54,030 nucleotides of DNA, from the sequence record PQ231202.1; one strand, 5' to 3'. The translations under genes were made by a program, and so were the position numbers. Shown here piece by piece: positions 7,988-54,030 of the stretch (position 1 is its first letter; each line of letters begins with the position of its first letter). This DNA comes from Escherichia phage BSBP01. The notes below the pieces were generated by a model. It was not told where the DNA came from. It made no database searches and saw only the letters and a list, made by a program, of their open reading frames with translations.

Positions 7988-8365
7988 TTAGAACGGAATG
8001 TCGTCGTCGAAGTCTTTCGGCTCGTTCGGGTTGTAGTTGCTATTCTTCGTCTGTTGCTGAGCAGGTGCTTGCTGTTGTGCAGAAGGTTGCTGGCGTGGCT
8101 GTTGCTGTTGAGCGGCAGCTTGAGGTTGAGCTTTGGCTTTAGCTTTCTCTTCACGCTTACGCATCATTTCATCAACTTGTTCCTGAGTCATGATGGTGAG
8201 TTCCAATGAGGTAAATTCGGTGTTGCCAGCTTTCTTATTCCAGCCAGACACCCAATACCAGATACCTTCTACGTTAATGCGACCACGAACATCTGGATGA
8301 TTTTCAGCTTTCTTGAAGCTGTTGTTGCCCAGAATACCAGTGTTTAAATCGTTGAATTGTGCCAT
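7988..8365 (-). CDS. Small SSB-like protein ending in the host SSB tail motif DFDDDIPF
   Basis: N-terminal about 60-aa domain, Gln/Ala/Pro-rich linker, C-terminus DFDDDIPF matching the E. coli SSB tip as recalled. Confidence 0.55.
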   Translation of the reverse strand: MAQFNDLNTGILGNNSFKKAENHPDVRGRINVEGIWYWVSGWNKKAGNTEFTSLELTIMTQEQVDEMMRKREEKAKAKAQPQAAAQQQQPRQQPSAQQQAPAQQQTKNSNYNPNEPKDFDDDIPF

Positions 8366-8437
8366 GATTAATTTCTCTTTAAGTTAATTACAGTTTAAGT
8401 TTCAGTGACATTGCTAACCACGGAATAGCTTTGTCTC

Positions 8438-8458
8438 TCTTCAAATCCAACTAATGTT
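8438..8458 (-). promoter_or_regulatory. Copy 4 of conserved promoter-like motif
   Basis: cttcaaatccaactaatgtt, about 75 nt upstream of the SSB-like gene. Confidence 0.3.
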
Positions 8459-8499
8459 AGATTAATCATGGACACCTACAAGAGATGCCCATTGTTAAT

Positions 8500-8733
8500 T
8501 TAACGAGTCAGTTTGTCAAAGTACCACATATCTTTGGTAATCCACTCACCGCTTGGTGATTTAATGTAGCAACTACCATTGATTGTGTATTTGAACTCTG
8601 CTTGCTGCAATTCTGCAAAGGTTTTGCATTCATATTTGTAAACAAAGTATGTAGGCAGTCCAATGACAACCAGAACGGACAGCAACATTAGTACGAAAGG
8701 CACTACAATATCTTTCATAACCCAATTCATCAT
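8500..8733 (-). CDS. Small membrane protein
   Basis: N-terminal TM segment VVPFVLMLLSVLVVIGL. Confidence 0.4.
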   Translation of the reverse strand: MMNWVMKDIVVPFVLMLLSVLVVIGLPTYFVYKYECKTFAELQQAEFKYTINGSCYIKSPSGEWITKDMWYFDKLTR

Positions 8734-8832
8734 ATCCCCGCTTGTAGAAGGAGTAGGTTTGCAAAACCCAGAATAACTGTAAGTATAACGACACTGATAG
8801 TGAGTGTCAGTATTATATATTTGATACTGCCC

Positions 8833-9120
8833 TCACATTACCTTTGATACAGGAATTGGGTCGATTGTGGTTTCAGGTTTATACCAACTTACTTCGCCAG
8901 AATCTTTAACAAGCTCCCACAAATTGGAGAATGTACGATAAGATAAATTGCGGTTATCATCATTAACGACAAAACCCAAAGGAGATTGAATATACGCACC
9001 GAGTGTACCGTTGTTGCGAGGAACCCCGTCACCACGACCTGCGACGATTTTGTATTCTTTACCGTTGGTAAAGTTGTAATTTGTTTTACCAACATAACGC
9101 AAAATTGAATTCTTGTTCAT
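8833..9120 (-). CDS. Hypothetical protein
   Basis: 95-aa ORF. Confidence 0.45.
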   Translation of the reverse strand: MNKNSILRYVGKTNYNFTNGKEYKIVAGRGDGVPRNNGTLGAYIQSPLGFVVNDDNRNLSYRTFSNLWELVKDSGEVSWYKPETTIDPIPVSKVM

Positions 9121-9437
9121 TTCTTAACTTTCTCCCATTTAGATAGGCCACCTTCGAGGTTGAAGATGCGGTTACAACCAGACTCATCTTTAATGACAAA
9201 TTGAGTTCCGGTCAATTGAATTGGCTCAAGTGCACCAAACAGCACTTTAGGTTTTGATAGGCTGGTGGCAAGAACAACATAAACTTTGCTTGGGCAAATA
9301 TCAAAAGCAAAGTCACGAGTGTAAACCAAATCACCAACTTTCAAATATGCTGGCAACATGCGACCTGTGGCTGGGTCACGCTGTAAACGAGTACGCTGTT
9401 TCATAAATGCTCCAAGTTGATTAATAATATTCAGCAA
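9117..9437 (-). CDS. Hypothetical protein
   Basis: 106-aa ORF. Confidence 0.45.
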   Translation of the reverse strand: MLNIINQLGAFMKQRTRLQRDPATGRMLPAYLKVGDLVYTRDFAFDICPSKVYVVLATSLSKPKVLFGALEPIQLTGTQFVIKDESGCNRIFNLEGGLSKWEKVKK

Positions 9438-9466
9438 CCACTCTCGCTACAAAGTGGTTGAGGAAA

Positions 9467-9697
9467 TTATTTGACTTCTTCCCAAGACCAGATTCCACCC
9501 TCCAAAGGAACACTTTCTCCTTCTTCAAAGTACGAATAACCATTGGCGTCTTTACGGTCGCTGTCTTTTGAAATACTTATGCGAGGCTCGATTCCATAAC
9601 CTCGCTTCACATGCATAACCCTTCCCTCAATCACATCACCAACCTTTGGTGAGTTTGCTCCATAAGAGGTTGATTTTACACATTTAAACTTTGTCAT
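9467..9697 (-). CDS. Hypothetical protein, paralogue of 9694..9921
   Basis: Shares N-terminal KFKCV-ST and a W-W motif with the adjacent ORF. Confidence 0.45.
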   Translation of the reverse strand: MTKFKCVKSTSYGANSPKVGDVIEGRVMHVKRGYGIEPRISISKDSDRKDANGYSYFEEGESVPLEGGIWSWEEVK

Positions 9698-13361: not shown

Positions 13362-15302
13362 TTATTGACAGAAGTAGTAAGCGTGTTCGCTCATCAGAAG
13401 CTCTTCGGTTACGATGTTCTCATGATACATCTGAATGCCACCGAGTTGCTTAGACAGATTCTCGAATTGATTGTTGGTTACGAAGATTTCAACATATGCT
13501 GCACGAATAACTTCCATCATACGTGGAGCATCTGCCAAACAGCAACGGAAACAATCGTGGATTGAAGTGAAACCACGAAGACCAGCTTCTTTAGCTTTAA
13601 CAGCAACAGTACGAGCAACCAATGCGTCGATACCTTGAATATAGTTGACTACGAAAGTACGCTTGAATTCCTCTTTAGTAGGATTGGATTCACGAATGGT
13701 CCAAGGTTTCTCTTCCTGAATCTGGCCAAAGATAACACGAGTTTGAGAGTCAACACGAATGCTGAATGCATCACAGATTTCACGAGATGGGAAGCAAGGC
13801 TTCATTACAACCTGACCATCAGTGTGCTTATAGGTGATGTATTCCTTGTTAAGCTCAACACAACGTTGATATGCAGCATCAGCAGCTTTCTCAATGAACA
13901 TGTTAATCTTAGCACCCAATGCGTTATGGATTGCTTCCACACACAGTTCAGCAAATGCCTCAGCCTTCTCAACTGGAATCTGAAGAGATGCAGTCATGTA
14001 AGAGATAAAGTCAGAAGAACCAGTTAAAGCAGCTTTACCACCACCATACTGAATAGCCATGTATGGAGTTTTGATAAACTTACGACCAGCTTTCGGATTC
14101 AAGAACTCTTCCATGATTTCAACAGAAGGTTTCATTGAAGACTTATCCAGCAGCTTCAACAGTTCACGAAGACTCAACTGGTATGGGTCAGATGCTTTAG
14201 TCTCAGAATCAACCAGACCTGTTGCACGAGCCATTTCCATGTTACCAGCAATGAATGCCAGATACTGAGTACCAGAACATTTAGCATCTAAGCCAAAGCC
14301 TACACGAGAATCGCATTCACCTGTAGTCTCAAACTTGAACCAATCCAGAGCCAGACGAACATAAGTGAATGGCTTAGAAGGACGTTCAGCTTTAGGCATG
14401 TTCATCATGCGAGCAAGTGAACCAGCTGGATTCTGAGCAACATAAGTTAAACGTTTAGCAGAGCACCAGTCTCCACCAGAAATGTCTTCCAGCTCAGCCA
14501 TGAACATGTTGTATGCAATGGTAGTAGAACCATCTTCGTTAAACTTCTTAACGATGTTCTCAACATTGTGAGAATACAAGCAACGAGCAAAGTCAGAGGA
14601 TTGTGGGTTAGGACCAGCACATGCTACATGATACAGGCGACCACGGTTATCAGCAAAGTAGTCAGAATAGAGTGTATCCTGAGTCATCATTGCTACAGCA
14701 TTGTTCCAAACATGGAGTTCAGTCTGGATTGCTTCTGGCATCTGCAAGCCACCATAAGTACGTTGTTCAAGCATGGACTGGATGATGCGAACCATCTCAG
14801 TCTCCACATGGTACTCAGTATCTTGCAGGAATTCGATTGCAGCTTTCAGAGTTTTGGATGGCTTAACTTTGCCACCTTTAACGAAAGGCTTGCGACGAGA
14901 TTCAGATGTAACACGCTCAGTGAATGGCACTGCTGTGTCTTTGGTTGTAACCAGTTCAACCCATGTGTCAGTTTGTTGGAATGACTTGTCTTCGTTCATG
15001 GTGATGAAGCCGAAGTGCTTAGCCAGACCAATGAGGTTGATAGCTGGGTCAACATAGTGCATTGCTTTCAAATCGTTGTTGTAGCGATTGGCATCAGCAA
15101 TAGAAGCAGAAGCCAGCTCAACCATCGCAATGGCAGGAACAACATCATCACGTGTGAAAGACGTCATCATCTTGAATATGGCTAAGGCAGCAATAGCACA
15201 AGTCTGAGGCTGCATATAGTTCTGCTTCTCTTTGGCACGGTATACCAGAGCAGTGATAGCAGGAACAACAGATTTGATAGTTTGAGTGGTGATAGTAGTC
15301 AT
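13362..15302 (-). CDS. Single-subunit T7-like DNA-dependent RNA polymerase, N-terminally minimal (646 aa)
   Basis: Motif A LDAKCSGTQY, motif B RKFIKTPYMAIQYGGG, motif C TSIHDCF and a VNYIQGID segment align to T7 RNAP catalytic motifs. Confidence 0.8.
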   Translation of the reverse strand: MTTITTQTIKSVVPAITALVYRAKEKQNYMQPQTCAIAALAIFKMMTSFTRDDVVPAIAMVELASASIADANRYNNDLKAMHYVDPAINLIGLAKHFGFITMNEDKSFQQTDTWVELVTTKDTAVPFTERVTSESRRKPFVKGGKVKPSKTLKAAIEFLQDTEYHVETEMVRIIQSMLEQRTYGGLQMPEAIQTELHVWNNAVAMMTQDTLYSDYFADNRGRLYHVACAGPNPQSSDFARCLYSHNVENIVKKFNEDGSTTIAYNMFMAELEDISGGDWCSAKRLTYVAQNPAGSLARMMNMPKAERPSKPFTYVRLALDWFKFETTGECDSRVGFGLDAKCSGTQYLAFIAGNMEMARATGLVDSETKASDPYQLSLRELLKLLDKSSMKPSVEIMEEFLNPKAGRKFIKTPYMAIQYGGGKAALTGSSDFISYMTASLQIPVEKAEAFAELCVEAIHNALGAKINMFIEKAADAAYQRCVELNKEYITYKHTDGQVVMKPCFPSREICDAFSIRVDSQTRVIFGQIQEEKPWTIRESNPTKEEFKRTFVVNYIQGIDALVARTVAVKAKEAGLRGFTSIHDCFRCCLADAPRMMEVIRAAYVEIFVTNNQFENLSKQLGGIQMYHENIVTEELLMSEHAYYFCQ

Positions 15303-15368
15303 TTGTAAGTCTCCAAGATTGTGTATGATTTAACTGAAACGGATTATAATAGCGTAGCCATTACACAA

Positions 15369-15384
15369 TTCACTTCCAACTAAT
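15369..15384 (-). promoter_or_regulatory. Copy 7 of conserved promoter-like motif, about 70 nt upstream of the RNAP gene
   Basis: ttcacttccaactaat. Confidence 0.3.
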
Positions 15385-15550
15385 ATCACAAACCTGTGCC
15401 ATTGTTACAACAGCACGGAGACTTTGACCTTGACCCATAAGCGAAGCGCCTAACTTGGTGTTGTTTGAAAGCCGATAGGCTGTAGGAAAAAGTTGGAGTA
15501 GGGACCGTATTTAAGTCCGATAGGACGTTGGGCTTCCCCTCCCCGCTGGC

Positions 15551-15815
15551 CCAAAAATAAAATTATAATATTGCCACAATTCTAGTCTCGTTAATATCGT
15601 AACAATTCGAGTATCGTAGCTTTGTTACGAATTCTAGTCTCATTAATTCTGTAGCAATATTGAAAATAAAAAAAAAATTATAAAAAAAATTATTTAATAG
15701 TCGGTTTTCCATTCGAACAAATTTCGGCGAGATACAGTTGACCGACCATGTACCATTTGGTTTTAACTTTACGCATTCCTAATATTACTCTTAATATTGT
15801 AGCAATATTGGGAAT
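15551..15815. repeat. AT-rich non-coding region with direct and inverted repeats and poly-A runs
   Basis: aattctagtctc at 15578 and 15630; inverted repeat cgtaacaa/ttgttacg at 15598-15629; TGTAGCAATATT copies also seen in the 12.3-13.3 kb region. Confidence 0.45.
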
Positions 15816-15925
15816 AAATAAATATTTAATTTACTTGTCTTATTCTAGCTCAAAGAGAAACGACGCTAACGCATCGAATCTCTTCTCGCATATAACTGAC
15901 AAACGTCAGCCTTCACCGTATCCAA

Positions 15926-17026
15926 TCATAGTTCAAATCCGCCTAGAGCATTGGTGTCAACTTCGGAGTCAATCTGCCCAACAAGGTACGAACTAATCTC
16001 CGTTTCTTGTGGAGCTACTTGTACAGCATCCGAATTCAACCATGCGTTAATCCAAGGAATCGGGTTAGTAGCACCTTTGAATGGAGCATCCAATCCAACT
16101 GCTTGCATACGAATATTCGTGATATATTCCACATATCCGCACAGAATTTGCTTGTTTAAGCCAATCATTGAGCCATCTTTGAACAAATAATCAGCCCAAT
16201 CTTTCTCTTGTTGGGCCACATTTTCGAACATTATTTGGCATTCTTGACGGCATTCTTTAGCAATTTCAGCCATTTCTGGGTCATCAACACCACTTGCAAG
16301 AAGGTTCAGCATGTGCTGAGTTCCGGTCAAATGGAGTGCTTCATCACGAGCAATTAAGCGAATAATCTTGGCATTTCCTTCCATTAACTTGCGTTCAGCG
16401 AAGGCAAATGAGCAAGCAAAGCTAACATAGAAGCGGATTGCTTCCAGTGCATTAATGGACATGAGGCATAAATACAGCTTCTTCTTAAGCTCACGAAGAG
16501 AAACTTTATCTTCATGCAGATGCCACATGGAAGTCAGATGTTGAAGCTCGTCATAATATTGGGAGATACCAATTGCACGCATTTTAATGTGCTCATTCTC
16601 CACAATTTCATCGAAAATTACGCTTGGGTCTGTAACAATGTTACGGATAATATGCGTGTAAGAACGAGAGTGAATTGTCTCTGAGAATGACCAAGTTTCA
16701 ATCCAAGTTTCCAGCTCAGGAATGCTCACAATTGGAAGCAAAACTGTAGTTGGTCCACGTCCCTGAATGGAATCAAGCAGGATTTGGTATCGTAAATTGC
16801 TAGTGAAGATGTGCTTCTCGCATTCAGGCAGACCAGCATAGTCAATTCTGTCCTGGCTAACATCAACCTCCTCAGGTCGCCAAAAGAAAGATAACTGCTT
16901 CTCGATTAACTTCTCGAAGATGCTGTACTTCTGTTGGTCATATCGAGCAACATTAACGTTCTGGCCAAAGAACATTGGCTCTAGTAGTTGGTTATTCTTG
17001 GTTTGTGAAAAGGTAGTGTAAGCCAT
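15926..17026 (-). CDS. nrdB: Class Ia ribonucleotide reductase small subunit
   Basis: Very close to enterobacterial NrdB along its length ([37 protein letters not shown]..); no nrdA found in the window. Confidence 0.9.
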
Positions 17027-17580
17027 TACAGATTTCCTAGATACTCATAGAATTTATGGCCACCATAACGTCCCAAACCTTTAACATTCTTGAAGTTGCA
17101 CTTCTCCGATGCTGTACAAAAGTGGGTTGCTTTGGTGACAGAGGGTTGATTAAATAGTACAAAAGATATTGCAACATTAATAGTGTCCAGAACTTGTTGT
17201 TGTTCTGTGGCATAATTAATCTTTGCTACATGCTTCCATTGAGCATTCTTCTTCTTTGCTTCTCGTGTCCATGCAAATTGGTTGCGTTGATAGACAACAT
17301 CACAAACGGTGTTAGCGAATGGCTTCCCGAACTCAGTTCTATTACGGACGACATTAGCTACCAGAATCTTTCCATGTTTGTCTTCTCCGCGAGCTTCATA
17401 CCAGATAACTTTAGTGTAGCATTCTAGCTCTTTGCGTTGTGAAGAAGATAGTTTCAGACTTCCATTTAAATAAGAGTGACTTGCAAAATCTGTAATAGCA
17501 GAATTCACTGCCCCAACCGAAGCTGGGGCGTTGATGTGAACTAAAGCTGTCAGAAGTGCAAGGACTTTGAATGATAACAT
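17026..17580 (-). CDS. Secreted SleB/CwlJ-type cell-wall hydrolase, probable endolysin
   Basis: N-terminal signal-like segment; [17 protein letters not shown] motif of the Hydrolase_2 family; immediately downstream of the holin. Confidence 0.7.
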
Positions 17581-17597
17581 TCGAGTTCCTTACCATT

Positions 17598-17939
17598 TCA
17601 TCGTGCCTTCTTGAACCACGTCAAAGGATTAAGTTGTTTGATTGCGCCAGAGAAACTTTCCCTGACAGTTGTGATAATGAGGTTGGCACCAATGACACCA
17701 ATCACAATAGCTAACACCAACTGCATAGTGACGTTAGTTGTGAAAGTTTCAAATGTACCTGCGACCTGAAATGCAAACAGCCCGATTAAGCTACATAGCG
17801 TCGCATCCAGCAACGCTTTGCTTAAGCCCTCACTCTCATATGCACCACGGATTAAAGCCGTCAGGCCAGCCAACAGTCCATGCCAAACGCCGTATTGGTG
17901 CATTGCTTCCCAAATCATCTGGAAAGTTTGTCTATCCAT
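17598..17939 (-). CDS. Putative holin
   Basis: 113 aa, three predicted TM segments, basic C-terminus, directly upstream of the hydrolase. Confidence 0.55.
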   Translation of the reverse strand: MDRQTFQMIWEAMHQYGVWHGLLAGLTALIRGAYESEGLSKALLDATLCSLIGLFAFQVAGTFETFTTNVTMQLVLAIVIGVIGANLIITTVRESFSGAIKQLNPLTWFKKAR

Positions 17940-27680: not shown

Positions 27681-27746
27681 CTATTGAAATTAATACACAT
27701 TCAAATAATGTTAAAGAGGTAACCGGGACGAATCCCGGCACCATTC

Positions 27747-47214: not shown

Positions 47215-47460
47215 TTACAGTTGAGTGATAACTAGGGAGAAGTCCAGGTCGTTCATACAAGAGATTAACTCTTGCTCATTGACGACAGGACCAGATAAAG
47301 TTTTAATGAATGCCTGATACATTGAATTGGCAGCATAATCACTTCCAAATAATGTTCCAGCATTCTCGGTAATTACAGACAGCACAGCTTCCCGTGCGTC
47401 TTCACCTTTCTTGACAAAATGGAAATGGTCCACTTTGTCGAATATAGATACAACAACCAT
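47215..47460 (-). CDS. Hypothetical protein
   Basis: 81-aa ORF. Confidence 0.45.
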   Translation of the reverse strand: MVVVSIFDKVDHFHFVKKGEDAREAVLSVITENAGTLFGSDYAANSMYQAFIKTLSGPVVNEQELISCMNDLDFSLVITQL

Positions 47461-47954
47461 TAGTGAATCTCTGCGTAGTTATCGCCAAATTGTACATCAC
47501 ATGCACAATCACGATTGAGTTTAAGTTCTTTGTTGGTCCGGTCCATTGCTTCATTAAGCAAGTCCGTCCACAAATCACGGAAACCTTTCTTAACTTGGAG
47601 AATCAATTCATCATGGAATTGTCCAGACAGAAGCGGGTCACAGCCCCAACGTTCATTGCAAATTGCAATAATGTTGTTACACCAAATATCAAACACATAT
47701 GCACCAGTACCCTGACACAATGTGGAGAAGCGGTCTTTCTCGGTGCGCAATGAATACCAGAATTTGTTTACTGGATTCTGTTGCCACATCTGACCATCAA
47801 CTGTGATAACTTTGGTGTTTGCAGCAATCTCTTTAATAGACCAGTTCAAGTCCCAATATGCTTTATGCAGTCGTGCAGCAGTAGTCTGGTCACAGCCAGC
47901 AGAACGAGCTACAGTTGGCACACCAGCACCATATTGACCATTTACATTGTTCAC
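47460..47954 (-). CDS. DNA polymerase, C-terminal fragment (rest of motif B and motif C)
   Basis: Begins GQYGAG completing motif B; contains QFHDELIL motif C; ORF opens with GTG immediately after an in-frame stop. Confidence 0.75.
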   Translation of the reverse strand: MNNVNGQYGAGVPTVARSAGCDQTTAARLHKAYWDLNWSIKEIAANTKVITVDGQMWQQNPVNKFWYSLRTEKDRFSTLCQGTGAYVFDIWCNNIIAICNERWGCDPLLSGQFHDELILQVKKGFRDLWTDLLNEAMDRTNKELKLNRDCACDVQFGDNYAEIH

Positions 47955-48083
47955 ATGAAGTCGTTAATTTCATGCCGGAACGAATCCAGCTGCATGTCAC
48001 CATGCAGAGCAGACTATATCATCACCGACCTATGTCGGGTCCCCCGTTTCCACCCACTTGGGTGTACGCCTTACGGCTAGTCG

Positions 48084-48521
48084 TTACACGTTCATGAAAG
48101 CATCTTGACAATCGTGATGAAGCTGGTGGCAACGCTTACAAAGCAACTCAAAGTTGCTCCTAACATTATTGCTTCTATCATGGTCACGATGATGAATCAC
48201 ACGTTCCGTATAGTGTACGTTCAGCAGATTCTTACCACACCTTTCACAACACTTAAGTTCTTCAAGCATTTCCTTTCTGGCACGTACATATTCACCTTTG
48301 CCGGAAGAGTAGGTTTTGCTTTCTGGACCTTTTGCGTGTTCAAAGTTTCCAGTGCCAGCACCACAGTTTATACCTTTCTTAATACACTGATTAACATAAG
48401 AACGGTCTCTGCACTCTTGCGCTGCAATATCAGAACAAGGTTTGCACTTGGAACTTCTTGGTCCTGTGGGAATGAACATCTCTCCACAAGAACATTTCTT
48501 AGGTTGGTAATTTCTTTTCAT
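48084..48521 (-). mobile_element. HNH homing endonuclease inserted inside the DNA polymerase gene
   Basis: Cys-rich zinc motifs and HHRDHD..N..CKRCHQLHH; lies between the two polymerase fragments. Confidence 0.8.
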
Positions 48522-48590
48522 GCTTCGCTCGGTATTGTCTCTGCGGCAGAGAGTTCCACCGAATTAAAGGGATTTTACATGCGCATCAAT

Positions 48591-50048
48591 TTACGCATAG
48601 TTTGTAGTCTTAAACATTGGACGTTGTTTACACTTCTTAATCCCGTCCTTGTGGTCCTGAGATTCCTGTTCGGTAATAAATCCACCAATTACGCCGATTG
48701 CAAGGTGAGCATCATAGTCTGGTGCCAACTGCTTCTTAACGTATTCAGGGTCATACATCCATTGGAAGTGGTGTTTACAGCGGTCTTCCAGTGAACACAA
48801 GTCAGAGCCTAACTGTTCGTAGTCTTCGCGCCACGCTTCCAACATTGAACGCAGTTCTTCACCGCCAAATACACGAATAGAAGGGAGGTTAACAAGTTCG
48901 CGGTGTTTAAGACGTAAAGTATTGGTAAGGCCACCACATCGTGCAGTAAGGTATCCGTCTTCATCGACGTCGCGAAGGAAACCGTTAACAACAGAGAGAC
49001 GGTGTTTATATACGCCCATCCCAATAAGATGTTGAATACCAGAGTCGGGGTTTCTTTCCGCCAGCTTATGCAAGCTCGGACATATTTCAGGATTGCCATC
49101 TTCATCCTTCACAGTGATTTGTGGAATCTGGCGAGTTTCACCTGTTTCCTTATTACGGTCGAACTTAAAGGTTTCTGGTTCCCAACCTAGGCTGAACAAC
49201 CAATCTTTGATTTGAACATGTGAACCAGCATTAGGCTTCTTGTAACCTTTAAGAACCTTGATAGCCAGGTCTGGGTCTTTCCAGTCCAAACCGTTCGCAT
49301 CACAAATAGCCTTCCACTTAATTCCAGTGGCAGACAGTTGCCCGTTCATCTTGTGGCATTTAGCTGGACGGGTCTTGATAACATACTCCGGAACACGAGG
49401 CATTGATGCCTCCAATGCGTCCGTCTTCTCTTTAATCATTGGTTCCAGCTTGGCCTTAAATGCCAATGCCTTCTCAATGTTCAGCTTCCAGCGAGTGCGT
49501 TGTTGAATAACTTGTTGACGAGCTTTTGTCATCAGATATTCAACGAAGCGTTTAACTTCGCCAGGAGATTTATAAATCTTCAAGAGTTGAATGTATTGCT
49601 GTTCCCACAGCTTCAACTGAATCTTGCAGTCTTCCATCACACGATGGTTGTACTCTTCTTGAGTTTGATTTTCCCAATCTTCAATGACTGGTTTTGGCAC
49701 ACCAAACTCTTCGCCGTAACCTTCTAAGCCGTGCTTAACACGACGAGGTTGCAGATACCAACTAATAAACAAAGTATCAATAAACACACACTTGGAGGTA
49801 TCGTATCCAAGGAATATGAGCGCTTCATTATCAAAGCACATACTATTGTGCATGACCAGCGTAGGTCCGGTATCCAAGAATGCTTGTACAGATTTTCTGT
49901 CAGTCCACTCTATTACATTCTCTTCCCTGGTTTGTATATCTATAAAACCAATATTGTGCAGACGAGGTGCGGACTGTTGCTTCATTTGCTCAAGCAAGCC
50001 TGTAGTCTCTATATCTGCGGCATACATATTATTCCAAGGGTATAACAT
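48591..50048 (-). CDS. DNA polymerase (family A), N-terminal fragment with 3'-5' exonuclease domain
   Basis: Exo motif AADIETTG; ends ...RPMFKTTNYA inside motif B. Confidence 0.8.
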   Translation of the reverse strand: MLYPWNNMYAADIETTGLLEQMKQQSAPRLHNIGFIDIQTREENVIEWTDRKSVQAFLDTGPTLVMHNSMCFDNEALIFLGYDTSKCVFIDTLFISWYLQPRRVKHGLEGYGEEFGVPKPVIEDWENQTQEEYNHRVMEDCKIQLKLWEQQYIQLLKIYKSPGEVKRFVEYLMTKARQQVIQQRTRWKLNIEKALAFKAKLEPMIKEKTDALEASMPRVPEYVIKTRPAKCHKMNGQLSATGIKWKAICDANGLDWKDPDLAIKVLKGYKKPNAGSHVQIKDWLFSLGWEPETFKFDRNKETGETRQIPQITVKDEDGNPEICPSLHKLAERNPDSGIQHLIGMGVYKHRLSVVNGFLRDVDEDGYLTARCGGLTNTLRLKHRELVNLPSIRVFGGEELRSMLEAWREDYEQLGSDLCSLEDRCKHHFQWMYDPEYVKKQLAPDYDAHLAIGVIGGFITEQESQDHKDGIKKCKQRPMFKTTNYA

Positions 50049-53903: not shown

Positions 53904-54030
53904 TCGGGATGAGGAGTAACCCAAATAAAAGCCTGAACTTTCTTTCTGCACAACACAATCAGCGCAACTAAGCCGTATCGCTACGGTATGCCAGACGCTC
54001 TCTTGAGCCTTTTGAACAGAGGCATAACTG
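53904..54030. repeat. Second copy of the 127-bp terminal repeat
   Basis: Identical to 1-127. Confidence 0.9.

Follow-up and report, generated by a model that had tools for sequence, protein, structure and literature searches.

In Proteus phage YP1, phage SSU5 and T4-like phages, as in the bacterial loci examined here, the two subunit genes of class Ia ribonucleotide reductase (RNR), nrdA and nrdB, adjoin each other. Dwivedi et al. (2013, PMC3653736) reported that "two phages only contain nrdB", listed in their Table S1 as phiEcoM-GJ1 (YP_001595470.1) and Campylobacter phage CPt10, the nrdA of the latter being a disrupted pseudogene, and they left it open whether such incomplete phage RNR sets are functional. 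The GJ1 nrdB has been annotated since 2008, and in the related phage ST32 the phage RNAP has been described as the first ORF and the RNR beta subunit as the last (PMC6266442). Neither the gene nor its orphan state is new, and our scan adds no discovery in this respect.

Protein and DNA searches identify Escherichia phage BSBP01 as a phiEcoM-GJ1-like myovirus of the genus Carltongylesvirus (Chaseviridae, Cleopatravirinae), within an ST32-like subclade. We found 45 GenBank phage records with an NrdB 90%–99.7% identical to that of BSBP01, called RNR beta in nearly all of the annotated records, and E. coli, Shigella and Yersinia are hosts of near-identical phages, which bears out the enterobacterial host that had been proposed on first inspection of the sequence. 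The window analyzed here is the whole 54,030-nucleotide stretch of record PQ231202.1. Its first 127 bases are the same as its last 127, and it is therefore read as a complete circularized assembly of 53,903 bp.

A class Ia beta subunit without its partner

The nrdB product matches the Pfam family PF00268 (Ribonuc_red_sm) with 164.9 bits (E 3e-48), far above the curated cut-off of 33.6 bits and over profile positions 7–281 of 281, and its top match among solved structures is E. coli R2, in both crystal and cryo-EM chains, over the full length (E 1e-199). Identity to E. coli NrdB is 79.8% when counted over 376 aligned columns and 82.0% over the 366 ungapped ones. The first-pass annotation, which had described a protein very close to enterobacterial NrdB across its length, is confirmed, and the ORF is real and full-length. 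When aligned to E. coli NrdB, all 17 functional residues checked are intact. These comprise the six di-iron ligands (D84, E115, H118, E204, E238, and H241), the radical tyrosine Y122, the radical-transfer residues W48, D237, and Y356 together with E350, and the pocket residues F208, S211, F212, and I234, plus S114 and R236. Positions that are invariant in 37 gamma-proteobacterial NrdBs are changed at 18 of 257 in the phage protein, compared with 61 in the NrdB of SSU5 and 93 in that of T4-like phages; the 18 include Q306, near I297, which is Gly in the phage, and D369 in the C-terminal tail, which is Ala.

The phage protein therefore has the full-length domain, the iron ligands and Y122, the radical path and the C-terminal alpha-binding tail of a class Ia beta subunit, whereas the alpha-subunit gene that would complete an nrdAB operon is not found alongside. 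A di-iron ferritin-like protein with a role other than ribonucleotide reduction, such as an oxidase or an iron or redox function, would fit the lack of a phage partner and the unusual place in a late tail/lysis operon. It is nonetheless a very improbable identity for a protein that keeps features required for RNR alone (the Y356/E350 tail and the alpha-binding C-terminus) and is 82% identical to the canonical enzyme.

Six-frame tblastn of the window gave no credible match to E. coli NrdA, YfaE, NrdH, NrdI, NrdE, NrdD, or NrdG, nor to the NrdA of a T4-like phage, SSU5, or Proteus phage YP1; the top matches in this partner-gene search had E values of 0.055–0.8 across 17–39 residues, and an NrdF query matched nrdB alone. 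The DNA polymerase gene is split by an HNH-like ORF; the weak NrdE match (E 0.055, window 48405–48521) lies within this ORF and was dismissed as a chance hit. As the window is complete, the lack of nrdA in the window is also its lack in the genome. Two earlier observations are upheld by this result, namely that nrdB occurs without nrdA, since the search for nrdA, nrdH, and nrdI remnants was negative in six frames across the complete genome and nrdB is a true orphan, and that its product would have to pair with host NrdA, because in a genome without nrdA any RNR activity depends on the host alpha subunit. The phage also encodes ThyX, a dUTPase, and a dNMP-kinase homologue.

In the tail (residues 356–375), the phage protein is identical to E. 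coli NrdB at 15 of 20 positions and retains Y356 and the terminal L/F/L anchors, compared with 8 of 20 identities for T4-like NrdB. The tail does not set the orphan apart from other host-type phage NrdBs, those of YP1 (14/20) and OBP falling in a range of 14–15/20; T4-like NrdB alone differs clearly. Since YP1 has its own NrdA and an equally host-like tail, conservation of the tail is no specific proof of pairing with the host.

Genome position and expression signals

All genes of the genome lie on the minus strand, with the coding-strand order around the locus being tail fibres, tail-fibre assembly protein, holin, endolysin, nrdB, 623 nt of non-coding DNA, and RNAP (Table 1). The GJ1, ST32, and Mangalitsa records all have RNAP first and nrdB last. 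The Mangalitsa and 4HA13 records each start and end at what corresponds to window position 15514/15515. By PhageTerm, the direct terminal repeat is 3,234 bp long in Mangalitsa and 3,120 bp long in 4HA13, and a terminal repeat of 2,339 bp has been demonstrated by experiment in PYps23T (PMC8762354). The direct terminal repeats of these relatives (2.3–3.2 kb) contain the RNAP gene, and the adjacency of nrdB and RNAP as an artefact of circular permutation was rejected on this ground. In virion DNA, the unique region has nrdB as its last gene, approximately 410 nt before the right repeat with its copy of RNAP. The placement given at first pass, between the lysis genes and the RNAP gene, therefore stands, with holin and endolysin upstream and the RNAP copy of the right terminal repeat following nrdB. 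The right-end spacer contains three 26-nt tandem units, which include a sigma-70 promoter annotated in GJ1.

Table 1. Features of the nrdB locus and its surroundings in BSBP01 (window coordinates)
Feature	Position	Strand	Basis or remark
Single-subunit RNAP gene	13362-15302	minus	PF00940
Start of direct terminal repeat, holding the RNAP gene	13362..15514	minus	Boundary 15514/15515
Right-end non-coding spacer, nrdB to terminal repeat	15516..15847	minus	Homologous spacer in 4HA13 and Faunus
Two stable RNA hairpins 3' of the nrdB stop, the second with a U-rich tract behind it	15848..15911	minus	Terminator-like
nrdB, class Ia ribonucleotide reductase beta (R2) subunit	15926..17026	minus	ATG start, 366 aa
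Short loop, residues 170-175, LHEDKV	16502..16519	minus	Replaces surface beta-hairpin of bacterial NrdB; alignments and AF2
Endolysin (cell-wall hydrolase), directly upstream of nrdB	17026..17580	minus	PF07486, E 1e-15
Shine-Dalgarno AGGAAA, 6 nt upstream of nrdB ATG	17033..17038	minus	Read from sequence
Holin, part of the lysis cassette upstream of nrdB	17598..17939	minus	PF05106, E 2e-8
Phage-RNAP promoter-like site TAACATTATTTGAATGTGTA, nearest upstream of nrdB	27694..27713	minus	Weight-matrix score 21.8

The Shine-Dalgarno sequence of nrdB is the one also given for ST32 ORF79 (PMC6266442). The endolysin stop overlaps the nrdB start codon (TAATG at 17024–17028), from which we infer that translation of nrdB is probably coupled to that of endolysin. 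Promoters were sought with a position-weight matrix built from the nine phage promoters annotated in GJ1, and the nearest upstream site corresponds to 'phage promoter 9' of GJ1. Between this site and nrdB, the weight-matrix scan found no comparable phage promoter, and sigma-70-like and terminator-like matches were not above shuffled expectation; directly upstream of nrdB, neither a sigma-70-like nor a phage-type promoter was found. On the other side, the 96 nt 3' of the nrdB stop fold with −33.2 kcal/mol (z = −4.1; none of 200 shuffles reached this stability) and include a terminator-like site at 15876..15861, and the hairpins probably mark the end of the late transcript. Taken together, the search for promoters, the overlapping TAATG, and the hairpins behind the gene make nrdB most likely the last cistron of a late baseplate/fibre/lysis transcript of approximately 11.8 kb that would start at the promoter-like site.

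Ancestry, gain, and selection

The closeness of the protein to enterobacterial NrdB had been taken at first pass to suggest recent acquisition from the host. Recent capture of a chromosomal nrdB from E. coli or another enterobacterium would agree with the 80%–82% protein identity over the whole length and with Enterobacteriaceae NrdBs being marginally the closest among bacteria (80%–82% versus 77%–79% for others), but the DNA tells otherwise. Identity to the nrdB of all 5,426 E. coli genomes is approximately 70%, third-position identity to E. coli nrdB is 41%, and Nei–Gojobori dS is saturated. Codon usage and GC, compared with those of the phage's other genes for a host-like signature, were typical of the phage: GC3 is 0.411 in phage nrdB against 0.623 in E. 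coli nrdB and a mean of 0.407 ± 0.054 in 60 phage genes, and the log-likelihood contrast of phage versus E. coli codon usage is 0.163, at rank 27 of 60 and next to the phage mean of 0.164.

No closer donor emerged from the searches. Among 185,579 GTDB species genomes and 5.8 billion proteins, the closest bacterial NrdBs were 75%–80% identical and spread over Enterobacteriaceae, Morganellaceae, Yersiniaceae, Pasteurellaceae, and Vibrio, and among the 5.8 billion proteins there was no NrdB between the phage clusters at 91% and bacteria at 78% identity. A high-scoring protein of 494 aa (P0004) was considered as an intermediate or fusion and rejected, being a bacterial chromosomal nrdB with repeated adapter-derived PVSYTHLDVYKRQ inserts. 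E. coli NrdB is nearer to the NrdB of Pasteurellaceae (84%–86%; Haemophilus 85%) than to that of the phage (82%), and the mean corrected distance from phage NrdB to Enterobacteriaceae (0.234) is about that between E. coli and Vibrio (0.240). In neighbour-joining trees, the Carltongylesvirus NrdBs were monophyletic (100%) on a long branch and nested within Enterobacterales in 0 of 300 bootstraps, while their sister group shifted: all bacteria, Vibrio, or the remaining host-type phage NrdBs took this place, with less than 25% support in every case; the robust result of these trees is limited to a placement that is never inside Enterobacterales. Together with nrdB alleles that already differ by a dS of 0.7–0.8 inside the genus, these data effectively refute recent capture.

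Phage NrdB falls in a host-type gamma-proteobacterial group, far from the T4-type phage NrdBs (54% identity); other phage members of the host-type group are Pantoea phage Survivor (77% identity), Proteus phage YP1 (76%), Pseudomonas phage OBP (75%), Aeromonas phage D6 (72%), and Erwinia phage RAY (71%). As judged from these comparisons, nrdB is of gamma-proteobacterial ancestry, was acquired long ago, and is fully adapted to phage composition. The evolutionary reading is corrected accordingly, from a recent theft to an old, ameliorated, and strongly constrained gene of one genus.

The distribution of the gene among relatives gives the point of gain. A search with RNAP returned 108 family members, 45 of which were at least 90% identical, the same number as the records with an NrdB of at least 90% identity, and the nrdB ORF is intact in all 45 Carltongylesvirus records. 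No nrdB stands behind endolysin in Sabourvirus 4HA13, Faunusvirus, Loessnervirus Y2, and Myducvirus, where the genome end or the repeat comes next. Both NrdB and NrdA are absent by tblastn from the complete 4HA13 and Faunus genomes, in which orthologues of holin and endolysin were found, and the terminus-side spacer is homologous in 4HA13, Faunus, and BSBP01. As the sister genera are empty at this site, the pattern is one of gain and not of loss, and gene content shows that nrdB was gained once, by the Carltongylesvirus ancestor, as an insertion of approximately 1.1 kb between endolysin and the spacer.

The suggestion that the location after the lysis cassette looks like a moron insertion holds in part. 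The gene is lineage-specific and absent at the same junction in relatives, and, like morons of the Hendrix type, it is an extra gene of one lineage with a terminator-like hairpin behind it. Unlike these morons, it has no recognizable promoter of its own, its start overlaps the preceding stop, and its composition is that of its neighbours and not foreign. An auxiliary metabolic gene added at the end of the late operon is the better description of nrdB, and 'moron' is only loosely apt.

Within the genus, the dN/dS of nrdB is 0.025 (BSBP01 versus Mangalitsa) and 0.068–0.072 (versus GJ1), as low as or lower than that of its neighbours, holin included (RNAP 0.05–0.15, endolysin 0.03–0.12). The dS of nrdB between the ST32-like and GJ1 subclades is 0.69–0.79, compared with 0.12–0.43 for neighbouring genes, which points to an old allele split with mosaic flanks. 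A decaying relic of a former phage nrdAB operon that has lost nrdA would have a parallel in the nrdB-only phage CPt10 with its nrdA pseudogene (PMC3653736). We give this next to no weight here, considering an ORF that is intact in 45 of 45 genus members, a dN/dS of 0.025–0.07 at a dS of up to 0.79, the lack of any nrdA fragment in six frames, and sister genera whose empty site indicates gain. The BSBP01 nrdB is almost certainly a functional gene under selection, and as a host-enzyme homologue under strong purifying selection within the phage lineage, it is an auxiliary metabolic gene of a virulent phage.

Proposed function and comparison with known systems

We consider it rather probable (about 0.6) that nrdB encodes an active phage beta2 and that this pairs with host NrdA in a hybrid enzyme. 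Phage beta2 would self-assemble its diferric-tyrosyl radical cofactor from host iron and the host ferredoxin YfaE, its conserved C-terminal tail would dock it onto host NrdA (alpha2), and the radical would be delivered along the conserved Y122-W48-Y356 path. In this way, phage beta2 could add to or replace host NrdB during the shut-off of host gene expression and sustain dNDP synthesis for phage DNA replication, acting alongside the phage ThyX, dUTPase, and dNMP-kinase-like genes. The hybrid enzyme is favoured because the cofactor site, the radical path, and the tail are under constraint, while the phage has no alpha subunit and does have other dNTP genes. Several points speak against it: more flux from an extra beta alone is hard to explain unless host alpha is in excess, one would not expect a DNA-precursor enzyme in a late operon, closely related genera thrive without nrdB, the tail is no more host-like than that of YP1 with its own NrdA, and D369 of the tail, invariant in the 37 bacteria, is Ala in the phage. 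Our literature search found no published test of a hybrid RNR from a lone viral beta and a host alpha. Since the class Ia RNR of E. coli is the best-studied RNR, the hybrid-enzyme experiment would be easy.

The late expression, a poor fit for a replication enzyme, and the conserved alpha-binding tail of an orphan subunit could also suit a non-catalytic binder, the tail of which would sequester or re-regulate host alpha2 in a dominant-negative or regulatory manner. Such a protein would have no need of the iron ligands, Y122, W48, D237, Y356, or the radical pocket, yet these are intact at a dN/dS of 0.03–0.07, and blocked dNTP synthesis would hurt a 54 kb phage that carries ThyX and a dUTPase; we regard this role as unlikely.

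The sole notable length difference between phage and E. coli NrdB is a deletion of 10 residues from a surface beta-hairpin in the ST32-like clade, BSBP01 included, by which L171–V185 of E. coli becomes HEDKV; GJ1 NrdB has a 4-residue deletion within the same hairpin. AF2 models place a beta-hairpin with strands at 174–178 and 181–185 (Met-numbered; local pLDDT 86–92) in E. coli-type NrdB, and a short helix-loop-helix junction at the same site in phage NrdB (local pLDDT 82–88). Mean pLDDT was 57 and 63 overall, owing to shallow alignments, and only the locally confident hairpin region of these models was used. In the inactive alpha4beta4 ring, I297 of beta packs into a dATP-induced pocket of the alpha cone domain (PMC11447812). 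This key residue is kept in phage NrdB; loss of the alpha4beta4 contact was rejected on that basis, and its conservation means that there is no evidence for escape from dATP control. It is doubtful, and at most a tentative extension of the hybrid-enzyme proposal, that hairpin-less, surface-altered phage beta2 (e.g., with Q306G and D369A) enters the dATP-inhibited alpha4beta4 ring with host alpha2 less readily, or binds alpha2 more tightly than host beta2 does. If so, host RNR would be freed from feedback late in infection, in a minimal, one-gene viral deregulation of dNTP synthesis. As a naturally hairpin-less beta2, the phage protein could also serve in studies of how the subunits interact and how the allosteric ring forms.

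Compared with phiEcoM-GJ1 gp75, ST32 ORF79, and the other Carltongylesvirus beta genes, the BSBP01 nrdB is the same gene at the same position; relative to GJ1 gp75 (372 aa), its 366-aa product lacks the whole beta-hairpin and otherwise differs in nothing of substance. With E. coli NrdB (R2; e.g., PDB 1RIB and 6W4X), it shares fold, length class, metal ligands, radical site and path, and I297, and it differs in being a phage gene without an adjacent nrdA or yfaE, in the deleted 10-residue hairpin, and in its phage codon usage. The RNR genes of T4-like phages, SSU5, and the YP1/Privateer group are likewise phage-borne auxiliary genes of dNTP supply, and the NrdB of YP1 is host-type as well, whereas T4-like NrdB is 54% identical to that of BSBP01 and has a divergent tail (8/20). 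In T4-like phages, SSU5, and YP1, however, nrdA stands beside nrdB in early or DNA-metabolism modules, while BSBP01 carries the beta subunit alone, at the end of a late operon.

Genome ends and the divergence of nrdB from its neighbours

The first and last 127 bases of the window are identical (Table), an overlap left by the assembler in a circularised contig, without which the genome measures 53,903 bp, a figure that counts the terminal repeat once. In phiEcoM-GJ1 (GJ1), a phage of the same genus, a host sigma-70 promoter is annotated whose counterpart in the window sits in the unique right-end spacer, outside the terminal repeat, accompanied by 26-nt tandem relatives. Accordingly, in linear virion DNA these elements would lie ahead of the RNAP gene at the right end but not of its left-hand copy. 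Within the repeat, upstream of RNAP, lie a phage-promoter-like site (score 22.4) and a TTGTGT-17-TATAAT match.

Between the subclade holding the window (ST32-like) and that of GJ1, nrdB has a dS of 0.69–0.79, whereas the flanking endolysin, holin and RNAP genes have values of 0.12–0.43, a contrast indicating that the region around the right end of the genome is a recombinational mosaic.

Table. Coordinates of features in the window
Feature	Coordinates	Strand	Remark
End repeat	1-127 = 53904-54030		exact
RNAP gene	13362-15302	minus	flank of nrdB
Phage-promoter-like site	15388..15369		region 15340-15390
TTGTGT-17-TATAAT match	within 15340-15390		
Host sigma-70 promoter	15594..15565		with tandem relatives, region 15516-15660
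nrdB	15926-17026	minus	
Endolysin and holin genes	17026-17939	minus	flank of nrdB
Interrupted DNA polymerase gene	47460-50048	minus	
DNA polymerase, first part	50048-48594	minus	GJ1 Pol residues 1-485
DNA polymerase, second part	47960-47463	minus	GJ1 Pol residues 479-644
ORF in insert	48084-48521		145 aa

An interrupted DNA polymerase gene

An insert of ~630 nt, with an ORF that has weak HNH-endonuclease matches (E 0.002–0.005) under the Pfam cut-off, divides the family-A DNA polymerase gene in two. In 4HA13, a phage of the sister genus Sabourvirus, the DNA polymerase is annotated as a join across an HNH endonuclease. The insert is probably a homing-endonuclease intron or a similar element.

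Anomalies in public records

GenBank PP952070.1 ("Staphylococcus phage Pel53", 53,660 bp), the size of which fits a Carltongylesvirus genome, encodes an NrdB 91% identical to that of the window; the probable explanation is a mistaken host label (Staphylococcus hyicus) or a contaminant isolate. A bacterial chromosomal nrdB at 8001-9485 of locus L095 (GCA_054570795.1, contig JBBPFT010000007.1) reaches a length of 494 aa through repeated "PVSYTHLDVYKRQ" segments, which are translated Nextera transposase adapter; its inflated length is thus an artefact of assembly in this public genome.

nrdB in other phages and on plasmids

In the E. coli genome collection, the phage nrdB matched the chromosomal gene in 5,426/5,426 genomes and, at 60–80% DNA identity, an additional 202 plasmid records, probably SSU5-like phage-plasmids with their own nrdAB. 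Host-type NrdBs, 75–79% identical to that of E. coli, are also encoded by the jumbo phages Pseudomonas OBP, Erwinia RAY and Aeromonas D6, with a yfaE-like ferredoxin directly after nrdB in OBP. No nrdA lies within 4 kb of nrdB in these three phages, nor are they among the 40 listed of 42 phage records with an NrdA at least 60% identical to that of E. coli. Their nrdA is either missing or much more divergent, and a lone host-type nrdB may therefore recur in further phage lineages.
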